IMG/VR virus record: IMGVR_UViG_3300032286_000505
Coordinates: 1 to 64,000 of that record
Source: a virus
Taxonomy: Duplodnaviria; Heunggongvirae; Uroviricota; Caudoviricetes
Direction: 5' to 3' (one strand)
Length of the DNA stretch: 64,000 bases
Shown here: positions 5,513-37,390 of the stretch, piece by piece
Layout of the letters: each line of letters starts with the position of its first letter
Numbering within the stretch: position 1 is the first letter of the stretch
The notes under the pieces: model-generated
The model's database searches: none
What the model was told of the DNA's origin: nothing
Seen by the model: only the letters and a program-made list of their open reading frames with translations
Position numbers and translations under genes: made by a program

Positions 5513-5994
5513 TGGAACATAATTCTGCCAAAGGTAGAAACAGCTACGACAGCACTTCAACAGGTGCAGTCGTGGCTTTTTTTAACCGCAATGTTACTGA
5601 GTATCCTACTGAAGCCGGCGGATTTAAGTTTGATCTTGTACCTGTAGAAAAACAAAAAGACATCATGTTGAATGTTGCCAGGATGCACGCTCAACAGGAA
5701 TATGATCGTATCATGGATCTTGTCAGGGTGCTACACAAACAAGCAGACAGTATTAAACGTAGACTAGAAATTACAGATATGGTACATGCTGCCAAATATG
5801 AATTCCAAGTCTATCACGACCAAATATATTGGTTAGTTCACGATACACGAAAAGACCTTGCTAGATTAGTAAGGCATGGTCCCCAAGAATGGTCTACAGG
5901 ACCTCCTGCAGAATATAACTATATCTGCAGGGTCAAGTGGTTAGGTGACCATACATGGATAGAAATAGACAAAGAAGGAAATTATGTTAATTGA
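5512..5994 (+). CDS. hypothetical protein (160 aa)
   Basis: ATGA stop-start overlap with upstream ORF. Confidence 0.4.
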   Translation: MEHNSAKGRNSYDSTSTGAVVAFFNRNVTEYPTEAGGFKFDLVPVEKQKDIMLNVARMHAQQEYDRIMDLVRVLHKQADSIKRRLEITDMVHAAKYEFQVYHDQIYWLVHDTRKDLARLVRHGPQEWSTGPPAEYNYICRVKWLGDHTWIEIDKEGNYVN

Positions 5995-28393: not shown

Positions 28394-28804
28394 ATGGACG
28401 GAAGAATAACATTAATTACACCACCGGATATATTTGAAAATAGCAATACCAGTGTATTGTTTGTAAATCTCAGTGAGCCCGATCAAGACATTGTCAGTCG
28501 CTGGTTGTCAGCCAACACAATAACAGAAAACTTAAATTTTTATGTGTATTCGGGAGAGCCCAGCGTTCCTTGGTTTTTACACGCTTCGAGTCGTTGTGAG
28601 CATAAGTATATAGACTTAAATAATTCTAACTATGTTATAAATGCATTAAGCAGCTACATGTTGAGTAAGAGTGGAGTTTACTATAAAGTTGACGATGAAA
28701 ACATCTCTTCAATTTATAGTCATATCAATCCAAATAAAATAACACGTATTGAAACATTTCTCGAAAGGTTGTTAATTGAACAAGGATACAAACCACAGTT
28801 GTGA
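28394..28804 (+). CDS. hypothetical protein (136 aa)
   Basis: ORF. Confidence 0.35.
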   Translation: MDGRITLITPPDIFENSNTSVLFVNLSEPDQDIVSRWLSANTITENLNFYVYSGEPSVPWFLHASSRCEHKYIDLNNSNYVINALSSYMLSKSGVYYKVDDENISSIYSHINPNKITRIETFLERLLIEQGYKPQL

Positions 28805-30005
28805 TTTCTGCGGCAAAAGTAAAGAAGACGTAGAAAAACTGATCGTAGGAGAAAACGCAGCCATTTGTAATGACTGTATTGATCTCTGTGTTGATATACT
28901 AAAAGACGAAAAGATCAAGACTCGGCCTTCTGATAAGAAAATTCTCAATCCTGCGTCTCTCAAAGACTACCTTGACGAATTTGTTATTGGACAGGACGAA
29001 GCTAAAATTGCTTTGAGTGTAGCAGTTAGTCAACACTTTAAAAGAATAAACAATCCTAGCAAAAATATCAAACTAGAGAAGACCAACGTACTGTTGCTTG
29101 GTCCTACTGGCTGTGGCAAGACCATGTTGGCTCGTAAAATTGCCGAATACCTAGATCTACCATTTGCTATCTGTGATGCTACTGGTATTACAGAAGCAGG
29201 ATATGTAGGCGACGATGTAGAAAGTATCTTAACTCGCTTGATCAATGAAGCTGACGGCGACATTGAAAAGGCAGGGCGAGGTATTGTCTACATTGACGAG
29301 ATTGACAAAATTGCCCGCAAAGGCGAAAGTGCCAGTCTTACTCGAGATGTTAGCGGAGAAGGTGTACAGCAGGCTCTACTTAAGATGGTAGAAGGCAGTA
29401 TTATGCGTATTCCTAGTACAGGCAAGCGTAAGCATCCTGGTAGCGATATGCAGGAAATTGATACTAGCGGTATTCTTTTTATCTGCGGTGGCGCCTTTGT
29501 TGGTTTAGATAAAATCATACAGCATCGATTAGAAGCTCGAAGTATTGGATTTAGTGCTAAGATAGCTGACAAAGAAGACAATAGTAAAAGCTACAGCGAT
29601 GTGAGTACAAAGGATCTTGTCCAATTTGGATTCATTCCAGAATTTATTGGCCGATTTGGATTGATCACTAATGTAGAAGAGCTTACACAAGATCAACTAG
29701 TATCTGTACTAGTCGATACTAAAAATAGCACTGTGCAACAGTATCAATACATATTTGAATTAGATGGAATTGAGTTAGAATTTGAAAAATCAGCTCTCCG
29801 AGAGATTGCCAGAAAAGCTAAAGATCTTAAAACCAATGCCCGAGGACTTAAAAATATCATAGAAAAGATACTATTACCGTATCAGTTTGATGCTATGAAC
29901 CTTGTAGAGCGTGGTTTGATAAAGATACTGATAAGTAAAGATACGGTGAGCGGAAAGGCCGCTACTATGATATTTGATAAAAAAGCAAACAATGAGCAAA
30001 AATAA
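28776..30005 (+). CDS. clpX: ATP-dependent protease ATPase subunit ClpX
   Basis: N-terminal C4 zinc finger CDFCGKS...CNDC; Walker A LLGPTGCGKT; sensor and arginine-finger regions; TTG start at 28776 or a downstream start. Confidence 0.85.
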   Translation: MNKDTNHSCDFCGKSKEDVEKLIVGENAAICNDCIDLCVDILKDEKIKTRPSDKKILNPASLKDYLDEFVIGQDEAKIALSVAVSQHFKRINNPSKNIKLEKTNVLLLGPTGCGKTMLARKIAEYLDLPFAICDATGITEAGYVGDDVESILTRLINEADGDIEKAGRGIVYIDEIDKIARKGESASLTRDVSGEGVQQALLKMVEGSIMRIPSTGKRKHPGSDMQEIDTSGILFICGGAFVGLDKIIQHRLEARSIGFSAKIADKEDNSKSYSDVSTKDLVQFGFIPEFIGRFGLITNVEELTQDQLVSVLVDTKNSTVQQYQYIFELDGIELEFEKSALREIARKAKDLKTNARGLKNIIEKILLPYQFDAMNLVERGLIKILISKDTVSGKAATMIFDKKANNEQK

Positions 30006-30225
30006 AGTTTTAACAGGCTGCAAAGTTATTGTGGGAGATCTGCCTATAAATGTGGCTTTGAGAAAGTTTAAACAACGAGTAGACGACAACGGCGTGTTAG
30101 AAGTTATTAAAGAGCGTATGCACTTTGAAAAACCAACTACAGAACGCAAAAGAAAAGCAGGAGCCGCTAAAGCTCGTTGGCTTAAAAAATTGCGCGAGCA
30201 AGAGCTACCTAAAAAAATGTATTGA
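29992..30225 (+). CDS. rpsU: 30S ribosomal protein bS21
   Basis: KVIVGDLPINVALRKFKQ...FEKPTTERKRKAGAAKARWLKKL aligns with bacterial S21 (VALRRFKR...YEKPTTERKR). Confidence 0.7.
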   Translation: MSKNKVLTGCKVIVGDLPINVALRKFKQRVDDNGVLEVIKERMHFEKPTTERKRKAGAAKARWLKKLREQELPKKMY

Positions 30226-30250
30226 CGCACAATACATAAGATGTTATACT
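30222..30250 (+). promoter_or_regulatory. sigma70 promoter TTGACG-17-TATACT
   Basis: 17-bp spacer; upstream of the restriction-modification genes. Confidence 0.5.
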
Positions 30251-30367
30251 CAATGTATGACAAAATTTAAAGTAACTAAATTAGGTAACGTTGGTATTCT
30301 TGTAGATGACACTATGGCTGATCGGAGTTATAAGATGTCAACACAAACAGGCACAAAGGAATACTAA

Positions 30368-31027
30368 ATGGCTAATTCAGCTCAACTCTCTAAAAACAAT
30401 AAAAATGCCCAAATATGGACCAATTGGGGTGATAACACAGAACGAGATTTTAAAACTTGTATCAAAGAAGTATTTGAACAATTGTCAACAATCTATCCAA
30501 ACTATGATTTTACACATCAAGGTAAAGTTAACAATCAAAAATTGATTGAGAGTTTTAACAATTACAACCCATCACATACATCTATCTTAAATGGTTCCAA
30601 CGGCGGTGGCTGCAATCCAGATGGTGGTGTAATTTACGTTAAAATTAATAATGGAAAATATATGCCTGTATTCATTGGTGAAAATAAACACCAAGAAGAT
30701 AATCCAGGAAATGCTATTGAACGATCTTTAAAAAATATATCGTTTTTTAAAAATCTTCTTATTAATGAAGATTACTTTCCATATCTTCTTAACATAAATG
30801 GTCCTATTGTAAATGATAGAAAAGGTAGTCTGTTTGATAGGATTGCACAGGACGGAGGATTTATGCCGATAAATACTGTACATGTAAAAAATAATCCAAA
30901 TACTCCACGACTCCGACCCTTTACTATTATACTTGATAAAAACTTTGATTATGATAAAGTCAAAAAAGTAAGTTTTGAAATTATAAAAGAATCAATTGAT
31001 CATTTAAAAAATGTTAATAAACTTTAA
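30368..31027 (+). CDS. EcoRI/RsrI-family type II restriction endonuclease
   Basis: NPDGGVIYVK...IGENKHQ...GNAIERSLKNISFF...YFPYLLNINGP parallels the EcoRI core (PDGGIVEVK...AEAKHQ...AAGNAIERSHKNISEI...HFPYVLFLEG) including the PD...E-x-K catalytic triad. Confidence 0.75.
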   Translation: MANSAQLSKNNKNAQIWTNWGDNTERDFKTCIKEVFEQLSTIYPNYDFTHQGKVNNQKLIESFNNYNPSHTSILNGSNGGGCNPDGGVIYVKINNGKYMPVFIGENKHQEDNPGNAIERSLKNISFFKNLLINEDYFPYLLNINGPIVNDRKGSLFDRIAQDGGFMPINTVHVKNNPNTPRLRPFTIILDKNFDYDKVKKVSFEIIKESIDHLKNVNKL

Positions 31028-32105
31028 GACTCCTTATCTAACTGAAAACATTATTACCTATATAGGTAATAAGCGAAAACTACTAATTGAAATTAGTGAT
31101 GTAGTTGATGACATTGTAAAGGATAATGAATCCTTTACAACTTGTCTCGATGCATTTAGTGGTAGCGGTATTGTCAGTCGATTGCTACGCCTTAAAGGAT
31201 TTACTGTATATGCCAACGATCTAGAAGATTATACACTTCCGATCAATCGAGCATTTTTAACACTTTCATCCGATCCGTTAACAACAGTAGATTATGAATT
31301 CTTAAATTCTGTTAATACAACTAACGCTCCTTATTTTAGTAAACACTATGCTCCTAAGAATACGGCAAATCCAGATTTAATAAATGAACGATTGTTCTAT
31401 TCAGCTGAGAATGCAGTGTTTATAGACGGAGTGTTAGAACACATACAGCAGTGGCCACAAAATAAAAAAGACGCCGTGCTGGCAAATCTTCTTTATAAAA
31501 TGAGTAAGAACATCAACACCAGTGGTGTGATGAAAGGATTTTATAATGGATTTGGCGGACCGAAAGGTCAAAACTTAGGAAGAATATTAGGAAAAATACA
31601 AATAGATCCTATCTATTATGTAGATAAACCGATTGGTGGAGTTTTTCAATCAAAGGCTGAAGAACTTTATTCCACTACAAGATGTCCGGCTGTTGACATA
31701 GCATACCTCGATCCTCCATATAACGGACATCAATACAGTTCAAATTATCATTTATTAAACAGTGCTGTAAAATATGATTTTTATGATCCAGGACTTACTA
31801 CCGCTAAGAAATCAAAAGTTGGTATTAGGAAAGATCATAACAGAAGTGTGTTTTGTTATAAGGATCAAGCAAAAGACGGATTTAAATCTGTAATCGATAC
31901 ACTACAGGCAAAATATCTTATTATTAGTTATAATAACGAAGGTATACTATCCATCAAAGAAATTGAAGATCTTTTGAAAACAAAATCCTCAAACATTAAA
32001 ATCCTATCAAAAAATTATAAAAAGTTTGCTGGTGGTTATGGCGGATATGAAAATACCTTAAACAAAAAAGTTCAAGAATTTTTTATTGTTGCAAAAATGA
32101 AATAA
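31011..32105 (+). CDS. N6-adenine DNA methyltransferase (Dam/D12-like alpha class)
   Basis: YIGNKRKLL, FSGSG (F-x-G-x-G) and LDPPY motifs in alpha-class order. Confidence 0.75.
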   Translation: MLINFKTPYLTENIITYIGNKRKLLIEISDVVDDIVKDNESFTTCLDAFSGSGIVSRLLRLKGFTVYANDLEDYTLPINRAFLTLSSDPLTTVDYEFLNSVNTTNAPYFSKHYAPKNTANPDLINERLFYSAENAVFIDGVLEHIQQWPQNKKDAVLANLLYKMSKNINTSGVMKGFYNGFGGPKGQNLGRILGKIQIDPIYYVDKPIGGVFQSKAEELYSTTRCPAVDIAYLDPPYNGHQYSSNYHLLNSAVKYDFYDPGLTTAKKSKVGIRKDHNRSVFCYKDQAKDGFKSVIDTLQAKYLIISYNNEGILSIKEIEDLLKTKSSNIKILSKNYKKFAGGYGGYENTLNKKVQEFFIVAKMK

Positions 32106-32109
32106 CTTC

Positions 32110-32138
32110 TTGACAATCTCTCTATATTCCTGTAAAAT
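32110..32138 (+). promoter_or_regulatory. sigma70 promoter TTGACA-17-TAAAAT
   Basis: Consensus -35, 17-bp spacer. Confidence 0.5.
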
Positions 32139-32163
32139 ATACTTTTACATATAGAAAGACAAT

Positions 32164-32694
32164 ATGGCAAAACATTTGATGCTAGATATGGAGACAATGG
32201 CAGTCTCCCCAAACGCAGTTGTTTTATCCCTGGGAGCTGTGCATTTTAACCCTTATGGCAATGGCTACGGAGATAAACTTTATTTCCGAGTCAGTATCGA
32301 CGACCAAGATGCTCTAGGTCGCGAAGTTGATCCAAATACTATAGATTGGTGGAGTAAACAGGATCCTGCTATTATGGAGGAAGCGTTTAGTCCAGACAAT
32401 CGTATCAGTTTAGTAGATGCAATGGATCAGTTCCATAAGTTTGCATGGGGTTGTAGTGCGTTTTGGTCACATGGCGCTACCTTCGACTTGATGATTATTC
32501 AAAATATCTACAAGCAGCTTAACAAGCCATTGCCTTGGAATTATTGGCAATTGCGTGATACTCGTACTTTATTTGATTTGGGTGTAGATCCGGATATGCC
32601 TCAAGGCAGTAAGCATGATGCTTTACAAGATGCTATCCGGCAAGCAGTCGGTGTACAAAACGTCTATGCTAAACTAAAGATTCGTCCACGTTAA
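32164..32694 (+). CDS. DEDDh 3'-5' exonuclease (DnaQ/RNase T superfamily)
   Basis: Exo I LDMET; Exo III H-x4-D KHDALQDA. Confidence 0.55.
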   Translation: MAKHLMLDMETMAVSPNAVVLSLGAVHFNPYGNGYGDKLYFRVSIDDQDALGREVDPNTIDWWSKQDPAIMEEAFSPDNRISLVDAMDQFHKFAWGCSAFWSHGATFDLMIIQNIYKQLNKPLPWNYWQLRDTRTLFDLGVDPDMPQGSKHDALQDAIRQAVGVQNVYAKLKIRPR

Positions 32695-36597: not shown

Positions 36598-37032
36598 ATG
36601 AATCAACTAGTACGCTTCGACACCAACGCTTTAAACAAAGCCCTTTTAGGATTTGACCAACTGTTCGATAACTTCGAACATCGTTTTGCAAATCAAATCC
36701 AGCAAAACTACCCCCCATATAATGTCTTGAAACACAATGACGATTCTTACGAATTGGAAATTGCTGTTACTGGATTTACTCCGGAGGAAATTACAGTTGA
36801 GATCGATCAGACTCAACTAATTGTTAAAGGACAGCGATTGCGTGACGAAGACACAAACACACAGTATCTACACCGCAGTCTTGCCACTCGCGACTTTACA
36901 CGATCATGGACTCTTGCAGAGCACATGGAAGTAGGCGAAGGCAAGATTAAAAACGGCGTTCTTACTATTGCTCTAACACGAGTGATTCCAGAAGCGCTTA
37001 AACCGCGTCAACTGAAAATTACTGCCGAGTAA
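36598..37032 (+). CDS. small heat-shock protein, Hsp20/IbpA family
   Basis: Alpha-crystallin domain; YPPYNV, AVTGFTPEEITVE, LTIALTRVIPEALKPR closely parallel E. coli IbpA; RBS AAGGAGAAAATTATG. Confidence 0.85.
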   Translation: MNQLVRFDTNALNKALLGFDQLFDNFEHRFANQIQQNYPPYNVLKHNDDSYELEIAVTGFTPEEITVEIDQTQLIVKGQRLRDEDTNTQYLHRSLATRDFTRSWTLAEHMEVGEGKIKNGVLTIALTRVIPEALKPRQLKITAE

Positions 37033-37081: not shown

Positions 37082-37390
37082 ATGAGCACCGAAACACCAG
37101 TTATCGAAAAGAAAAAACAAACAAGTAGGCAAATTAAAGAACCAGGTAAGTTCAAAGTTGTTGTTTGTAATGATGATGTAACCACAGCAGATTTTGTTGT
37201 AGCCATGCTAATGAACATTTTCCGCTACGACGAGAAGCGGGCATATGAATTAACTATTTTAATTCATCAAAGGGGTAGTGCAGTAGCAGGTGTTTATTCA
37301 TACGAGATTGCTGAACAAAAAGCAGTCGATGCAACCAATATGGCTCGTATCAACGGATTCCCTTTGATAACTAAAGTGGAACCAGAATGA
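37082..37390 (+). CDS. clpS: ATP-dependent Clp protease adaptor ClpS
   Basis: FKVVVCNDDVTTADFVVAMLMNIF matches the ClpS core ([24 protein letters not shown]). Confidence 0.85.
   Translation: MSTETPVIEKKKQTSRQIKEPGKFKVVVCNDDVTTADFVVAMLMNIFRYDEKRAYELTILIHQRGSAVAGVYSYEIAEQKAVDATNMARINGFPLITKVEPE

Follow-up and report, generated by a model that had tools for sequence, protein, structure and literature searches.

An EcoRI-family nuclease and a D12-class adenine methylase as a predicted AAATTT-specific restriction-modification operon of a large uncultured phage

MunI/MfeI (C^AATTG) and ApoI/XapI (R^AATTY) are small arm-less or relaxed EcoRI-like scaffolds, in which the AATT core of the target is kept and the outer base pair varies. 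In EcoRI itself, R200 contacts the outer guanine. Here we describe a stretch of 64,000 nucleotides from a Caudoviricetes virus record (IMG/VR IMGVR_UViG_3300032286_000505, positions 1 to 64,000; "the window" below), in which the gene for an EcoRI-family nuclease overlaps that of an N6-adenine DNA methylase. With 219 amino acids the nuclease is nearer in size to the small arm-less MunI than to EcoRI, and the methylase is of the D12/alpha class, from which the type of M.EcoRI differs. We found that the pair is most likely an AAATTT-specific type IIP restriction-modification (R-M) system.

Several described systems bear on such a locus. The relationship of EcoRI, MunI and MluCI is mentioned in a review (PMC4081073), and a report on Eco29kI (PMC3113576) describes an R gene ahead of, and partly overlapping, the M gene in one operon with no controller protein. 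Virulent phages seldom carry a complete R-M system, nine having been found in 831 genomes (PMC4176335). PacI is a solitary enzyme whose producer genome is without its site (PMC3488263), T4 EndoII takes part in host DNA degradation (PMC2764454), and a preprint on giant viruses sets out a logic of R-M and host-DNA-degrading nucleases (bioRxiv 10.1101/2019.12.21.884833). When the literature was searched for an AAATTT-specific enzyme or motif (REBASE being outside the scope), the matches were confined to star sites of EcoRI, motifs of AamA, and RAATTY motifs wrongly called as AAATTT. We know of no characterised type II prototype for AAATTT, only of degenerate RAATTY enzymes.

Nuclease and methylase of the cassette

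By its model score, by its catalytic and AATT-reading residues and by its fold, the nuclease is a type IIP endonuclease of the EcoRI family. It scored 58.1 bits against the Pfam EcoRI model PF02963 (gathering cut-off 22, E 9.4e-16) and 4.4e-16 against PADLOC REase_II, and a phmmer search of the PDB returned EcoRI chains only (7e-13). A profile of the family aligned over full-length EcoRI at 8.7e-49, a score inflated by the presence of one canonical EcoRI-like sequence (P0043) in the underlying alignment (A1). The AlphaFold model (predicted local distance difference test score, pLDDT, 85.4) gave significant Foldseek matches to EcoRI chains only (E 5.7e-14 to 1.3e-12, template-modelling (TM) score 0.73). 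MunI was detected neither by the PDB sequence search nor by Foldseek, and the nuclease had no match in the phage collection at either the DNA or the protein level. The two genes and the functional residues of the nuclease lie as follows.

30368..31027, + strand: EcoRI-family type IIP restriction endonuclease, 219 amino acids, minimal form without inner and outer arms
30617..30688, + strand: catalytic PD...ExK residues (P84-D85 at 30617-30622, E105 at 30680-30682, K107 at 30686-30688)
30698..30724, + strand: recognition strand D111-N112-P113-G114-N115-A116-I117-E118-R119, in which GNAIER corresponds to the AATT reader of EcoRI
30830..30841, + strand: L155-F156-D157-R158, with L155 in place of EcoRI R200 and D157/R158 equivalent to EcoRI D202/R203 (hidden Markov model alignment)
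31011..32105, + strand: alpha-class (D12) N6-adenine DNA methyltransferase, 364 amino acids, its start overlapping the nuclease gene by 17 nucleotides (nt)

On alignment, D85, E105 and K107 of the nuclease correspond to EcoRI D91, E111 and K113 (PDGG to D91; E-N-K-HQ to E111/K113), while GNAIERSLKNIS corresponds to G140-N141-A142-I143-E144-R145 and the longer GNAIERS-KNIS block to G140-S146. Among 22 relatives P84-D85-G-G, E105, K107, Q109, G114-N115-A116, E118-R119 and D157-R158 are invariant, and the catalytic residues are kept also in those members that have no methylase beside them. An EcoRI-like catalytic core and the GNAIERS-KNIS block had been noticed in the original prediction, and both were borne out. 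Significant similarity to EcoRI and conservation of the catalytic residues, set beforehand as the test of the assignment, were both found.

The nuclease departs from EcoRI at positions outside this core. The column equivalent to R200 is variable (L/Y/H) across the 22 relatives. About 20 residues of the inner arm (EcoRI ~119-138) and about 19 of the outer arm (~172-190) are deleted relative to both EcoRI and the canonical relative P0043. N112 stands in place of EcoRI A138, two positions before the G of GNAIER, and is at least 90% conserved; we infer a role for it in reading an outer A:T pair. Since GNAIER is invariant and both R200 and A138 are replaced, the AATT-reading core is kept while the readers of the outer base pair have changed. 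The top structural match was the "promiscuous" EcoRI mutant A138T (2oxv); this match is uninformative on N112, and its label hints at no more than an influence of position 138 on the selectivity of EcoRI. The nuclease thus lacks the features tied to GAATTC recognition, namely R200, the arms, and avoidance of GAATTC in carriers without a methylase (see below).

The downstream gene product matched Pfam D12 (PF02086) with 60.9 bits (cut-off 22, 2e-16) over profile positions 1-250 of 253 and PADLOC MTase_II over its full length (3.3e-75). Its motifs, YIGNKRK (residues 17-23, 31059-31079; YIGNKRKLL 17-25), FSGSG (49-53, 31155-31169) and, after a long variable region, DPPY (234-237, 31710-31721), follow the alpha arrangement and are invariant in 13 relatives. 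The predicted overlapping alpha-class N6-adenine methyltransferase with these three motifs was therefore recovered. Its description as "Dam-like" is true at the level of class only: the Dam model TIGR00571 gave 17.5 bits, below its cut-off of 114.85, so that the enzyme is not a Dam orthologue, and GATC is irrelevant to the avoidance pattern described below. PDB searches with the methylase, as a single sequence and as a profile, gave no match.

The best annotated relative of the methylase is encoded on the Acinetobacter baumannii chromosome, behind nrdR-ribD (30% identity, 97% coverage, E 5e-42). By gene context, though with no accession match, this enzyme is probably AamA (A1S_0222), and AamA is probably the nearest relative that has been studied by experiment. 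It is reported to methylate TTTRAATTYAAA, sites with an AATT core, and to block EcoRI at GAATTC (PMC10483419). Because this probable relative methylates such sites, the methylase lineage is already tied to AATT-core targets.

Site avoidance in related phages

Searches with the nuclease recovered 41 clusters of close homologues (46-95% identity), all from metagenomes. Members of the subfamily were found on phage or metagenome contigs only; 185,579 species-representative bacterial and archaeal genomes contained none, the best match (34% identity) being to canonical EcoRI-like genes. Close homologues at 42-86% identity yielded eight independent phage loci with no methylase (L001/2, L003/4, L010, L089, L091, L094, L168 and L169-171), where absence was judged within the visible flanks of at most 10 kilobases (kb) on each side of the nuclease gene. 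A further locus, L008, proved to be the same phage as L010 (11.8 kb at 100% identity); it was dropped and the statistics were recomputed. Within these flanks no D12 homologue was found by tblastn, a motif scan found no open reading frame joining a DPPY/NPPY motif IV with FxGxG, and Pfam searches of candidate reading frames identified as methyltransferase-like genes only enzymes of the small-molecule S-adenosylmethionine-dependent type. Seven loci carry the pair: the window (L007), L088, L172, L092, L009/L005, L176 and L174.

All NAATTN words were counted per locus and all 2080 strand-symmetric hexamers were ranked, with expectations from a maximal-order Markov model. In the methylase-less set (111.5 kb, guanine-cytosine (GC) content 35-56%) AAATTT did not occur at all, against 27.1 expected copies by the Markov model and 68.0 by base composition. 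It was the most depleted of the 2080 words (z -5.2; next word -2.9), with a Poisson probability of 1.7e-12, or 3.5e-9 after multiplication by 2080. Other AATT-core words in the same loci were present:

AAATTC/GAATTT: 76 observed, 51.2 expected (Markov)
GAATTC: 11 observed, 21.5 expected (Markov)
CAATTG: 30 observed, 32.8 expected (Markov)
TAATTA: 35 observed, 49.4 expected (Markov)

AATT itself occurred in hundreds of copies and was mildly under-represented. In the seven paired loci (137 kb), by contrast, AAATTT was found 98 times against 113.2 expected (rank 105), and in the window 25 times against 34.3. All eight methylase-less loci and none of the seven paired ones had zero AAATTT (Fisher 1.6e-4).

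A nuclease and a methylase that both address AAATTT would be expected to leave this very signature: zero sites in carriers that have no methylase and near-expected frequency in those that have one. AAATTT is therefore predicted over GAATTC and CAATTG, since R200 is lost and the methylase-less homologues tolerate both of these sites while having no AAATTT at all. This replaces the GAATTC or CAATTG target that the checks proposed with the original prediction had assumed, although its remark that GAATTC is not obviously depleted in the window was correct (16 observed, 20.1 expected). The two enzymes would then act on the same sequence; the exact site is a prediction from the pattern, and the methylated base would lie within it.

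The same approach recovered a known specificity. Pooled as a positive control, loci of the canonical strand type (xLM[AV]A-GNAIER) had 102 copies of GAATTC against 183 expected, a depletion of rank 2 among the 2080 hexamers. A third motif class showed RAATTY-like depletion. Q[AS]T-GNAIER loci were depleted in AAATTC (31 against 78) and AAATTT (43 against 74). Taken over the viral and metagenome loci L011-L167, residue classes preceding GNAIER that each have their own site depletion point to a readable specificity code.

In the window, several GC-rich palindromes are absent or rare (TGCGCA 0 against 5.4, ACGCGT 0 against 1.7, AAGCTT 3 against 11.9, GCATGC 3 against 9.1), which may reflect host restriction pressure unconnected with the cassette.

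A neighbour-joining tree placed paired members on the deepest branches and methylase-less lineages in several places, with the clade of the window nested among them, and outside the nuclease gene the loci have hardly any DNA in common. In every context examined, close relatives of the methylase (63-93% identity) lie directly 3' of an EcoRI-family gene, and distant viral EcoRI-family genes, those in giant-virus bins included, often adjoin a methylase 33-37% identical to that of the window. From these close and distant loci with the same pairing it follows that the combination is recurrent and not the product of a single shuffle; the earlier suggestion of a shuffled pairing, based on the difference in class from M.EcoRI, was overstated.

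The methylase-less phages L169 (1-18081), L168 and L001 also stand out by unusual cargo, comprising an eIF-1A/IF1-like gene, ClpP, a CHASE2-guanylate cyclase, a class II aminoacyl-tRNA synthetase-like gene, TauD, a carbamoyltransferase and a penicillin-binding-protein-like transglycosylase. In L001, what looks by eye like a candidate tRNA 3' end (GGTTCGACTCC...) is located at ~5830-5990, just 5' of the nuclease gene.

Operon layout, neighbouring genes and mobility

The cassette and its surroundings contain the following further features.

28776-30005: ClpX-like ATPase, 5' of the bS21 gene
29992/29974-30225: phage gene for ribosomal protein bS21, directly 5' of the cassette (PF01165 7e-13, TIGR00030 1e-13)
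30222..30250, + strand: putative sigma70-like promoter of the cassette, TTGACG, 17-nt spacer, TG-n-TATACT, 10 of 12 matches with an extended -10 element
30356..30361, + strand: Shine-Dalgarno-like AAGGAA, 6 nt ahead of the nuclease ATG, read directly from the sequence
32110..32138, + strand: strong promoter-like site TTGACA-17-TAAAAT (11 of 12), 3' of the methylase stop codon, serving the next gene
32164..32694, + strand: Rv2179c-like 3'-5' exonuclease (PF16473, 6e-37), 3' of the cassette

The placement of the cassette 3' of bS21 was thus confirmed. A TTGAC-N17-TGnTAtAAT site precedes the nuclease gene in most loci (L088, L172, L092, L174 and L168), and the 17-nt overlap of the two genes is kept in L088, L172, L009, L092, L174 and L176. 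No terminator-like site was found on the + strand between the two reading frames. Both genes had been credited with consensus promoters of their own, and ahead of the nuclease gene a promoter-like site was indeed found. For the methylase, candidates sought inside the nuclease gene reached 9 of 12 matches at best, and sites of this quality are no more frequent in the whole region than chance allows (17 against 11 +/- 3.7 in shuffles), so a separate methylase promoter was rejected. Because the genes overlap and no methylase promoter rises above chance, they look like one operon of overlapping layout behind a single promoter.

A single AAATTT is located at 30263-30268, in the 5' untranslated region just 3' of the cassette promoter. 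It was considered as a conserved methylation-sensitive operator and rejected as such; since the other paired loci are without it, its presence is probably due to chance.

The region 3' of the cassette also contains a DUF454 gene on the opposite strand and a metallophosphoesterase gene, and genes of translation and proteostasis are found around it (the ClpX-like ATPase, bS21, HSP20 at 36598-37032 and ClpS at 37082-37390). The window further encodes NrdA, nicotinamide phosphoribosyltransferase (NAMPT) and rIIA, the last of which is at best only ~30% identical to its match, in PA5oct-like jumbo phages. By this gene context (rIIA, NrdA, NAMPT, ClpX, bS21) the source, a large uncultured phage, is judged to be T4-like or of jumbo type.

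At 31.4% against 40.8%, the cassette is the 1.9-kb stretch of lowest GC content in the 64-kb window, and only 0.2% of sliding windows reach so low a value. Compared with the syntenic phage L088, the nuclease is 86%, the methylase 94% and the exonuclease 86% identical, compared with 63% for bS21 and 44-49% for other neighbours; at the nucleotide level a block at 30355-32682 is 84.5% identical and its flanks at most 70%. In other phages the pair is found in unrelated contexts. The cassette looks to have been exchanged horizontally between phages, and the Rv2179c-like exonuclease may be part of the same exchanged module, to which it could be functionally linked. In two unrelated contexts the R-M pair has an exonuclease gene on its 3' side, Rv2179c-like here and in L088 and of the 5'-3' type (PF02739) in L176 (9180-10181), which suggests an endonuclease-plus-exonuclease module for DNA degradation.

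Rival readings and known systems

Taken together, these results favour, with a probability of about 0.72, a functional, mobile type IIP R-M operon on a T4-like or jumbo phage, whose nuclease and methylase address AAATTT and which is used offensively under self-protection. An early host-type promoter would drive first the minimal nuclease and then the overlapping, probably translationally coupled methylase, so that both enzymes would be made early. Incoming phage DNA would be pre-methylated at AAATTT, and replicated DNA would pass from a hemimethylated to a fully methylated state. By analogy with EcoRI, MunI and ApoI, the nuclease would cut at A^AATTT, in unmethylated host DNA as well as in the DNA of co-infecting phages. 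Cutting of the host would lead to host shutdown and to nucleotide supply or salvage, a view that draws on the phage ribonucleotide reductase and on the exonuclease travelling with the cassette; cutting of competitors would exclude rival phages. The phage genome, with 25 AAATTT sites in the window, would be protected because the methylase modifies the same site, and the methylase-less carriers would survive because they have no such sites. That these sister phages have retained only the nuclease favours a role in attack or exclusion and disfavours one in host protection or addiction. A role against host or competitor DNA, which had been proposed earlier, thus stays plausible. A broader claim, that the nuclease marks a phage-restricted clade of minimal, offensive EcoRI-like enzymes of AAATTT specificity that switch between a cognate methylase and purging of AAATTT, we hold to have roughly even odds.

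The nuclease could instead be an isoschizomer of EcoRI/RsrI (GAATTC), or of MunI type (CAATTG), with a methylase of unrelated class. EcoRI is its closest relative by sequence and fold, with an identical GNAIER block and the same catalytic residues, and GAATTC is slightly under-represented in the window (16 against 20) and in the methylase-less loci (11 against 21.5). However, the R200 equivalent is not conserved, MunI is undetected by sequence or fold, and 11 GAATTC and 30 CAATTG sites in 111 kb of methylase-less loci would be self-destructive for an active enzyme of such specificity, which makes this reading highly improbable. A degenerate or shorter site, RAATTY as for ApoI or AATT as for MluCI/Tsp509I, would fit the RAATTY-like depletion seen in other motif classes of EcoRI-family viral loci and in the L009 subfamily, the mild under-representation of AATT in the methylase-less loci, and the RAATTY core of the motif of AamA, the probable methylase relative (PMC10483419). 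The same methylase-less loci nevertheless hold an excess of AAATTC/GAATTT (76 against 51), GAATTC, and AATT in hundreds of copies, and we consider such a site unlikely.

The avoidance of AAATTT might also come from restriction by the host, the phage nuclease having another or no sequence-specific activity and the methylase serving mainly against restriction. Phages commonly purge host restriction sites, GTGCAC is also low in the methylase-less loci (6 against 18.5), and solitary methylases are common in phages (PMC4176335). Yet AATT, the core that an EcoRI-family enzyme should read, lies within the avoided word, and avoidance of this word tracks the absence of the methylase (8/8 against 0/7 loci) across interleaved lineages. 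The catalytic residues are invariant in methylase-less members, close methylase relatives were never seen without the nuclease gene in the contexts examined, and the subfamily is found in none of the 185,579 cellular species genomes; we give this explanation little credence. Equally doubtful is a reading in which, instead of arming a lytic phage for attack, the cassette serves selfishly for addiction or stabilisation or forms a defence island in a temperate element. Type II systems do stabilise mobile elements, prophages carry R-M systems more often than virulent phages do (PMC4176335), and the cassette is clearly mobile. The T4-like or jumbo context (rIIA, NrdA, NAMPT, ClpX, bS21) speaks against such a module, a nuclease kept alone in related phages has no addiction logic, and the order of the genes, nuclease first and with no controller protein, favours early cutting.

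Several points weigh against an offensive AAATTT-specific system. The site is read solely from avoidance in ~110 kb of partial contigs, and the offensive role against host or competitor DNA is proposed by analogy only. The neighbour-joining tree is without support values, and fold searches with the methylase model (pLDDT 85.6) could not separate it from generic class I methyltransferases. The methylase-less phages could hold a protecting methylase beyond the visible flanks, which would leave the total absence of AAATTT unexplained, and a host enzyme could impose the avoidance in place of the phage nuclease. Finally, the paired subfamily L009/L005 (nuclease 55%, methylase 77% identical) shows RAATTY-like depletion despite its methylase: AAATTC/GAATTT 0 against 4.1 by the Markov model and 12.8 by composition, GAATTC 0 against 0.5 and 3.9, AAATTT 2 against 7.4. 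Specificity may therefore vary within the family.

If the prediction of AAATTT is true, a new specificity would be added to the best-studied restriction enzyme family. The natural replacements of R200 and A138 would make plain how the EcoRI scaffold reads the outer base pair, and a natural arm-less scaffold of 219 amino acids would show which residues re-target this pair, a hard problem for EcoRI engineering. The sister phages would form a natural experiment in self-protection, by methylation or by complete elimination of sites, and an A^AATTT cutter giving AATT-compatible ends may become usable. The contrast in site counts between carriers with and without the methylase also shows that the specificity of a nuclease can be worked out from metagenomic data, and for phage biology the locus suggests a function of restriction enzymes in host takeover or competitor exclusion.

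Among known systems, the operon layout resembles that of Eco29kI, though the enzymes are unrelated and the internal promoters and regulation known there were not found here above chance. Chlorovirus R-M systems and T4 EndoII/EndoIV, the latter in combination with modified phage DNA, share the principle that own DNA is marked or shaped and unmarked host DNA is cut, a role that is only proposed here, and they differ in nuclease families and protection chemistry. As with PacI, nuclease relatives without a methylase reside in loci with zero predicted sites within the visible flanks; unlike PacI, the carriers are phages, the clade also has methylating members, and the nuclease of the window is not solitary. 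The methylase is similar over its full length to the probable AamA and would share AATT-core targets with it. AamA, however, is an orphan encoded on the chromosome; it acts in regulation, and its motif is longer and degenerate. Unlike MunI and ApoI, the nuclease is set apart by the absence of a sequence or Foldseek match to MunI and by avoidance data that count against CAATTG and RAATTY. With EcoRI and RsrI (G^AATTC; PF02963; PDB 1ERI, 1CKQ, 2OXV) it shares the nuclease fold and the catalytic D/E/K, and with EcoRI also the equivalents of N141/E144/R145 and D202/R203 and a conserved N-terminal tail. It differs from EcoRI (277 amino acids) in its length of 219 amino acids, its deleted arms, L155 for R200, N112 for A138, and a predicted AAATTT site.

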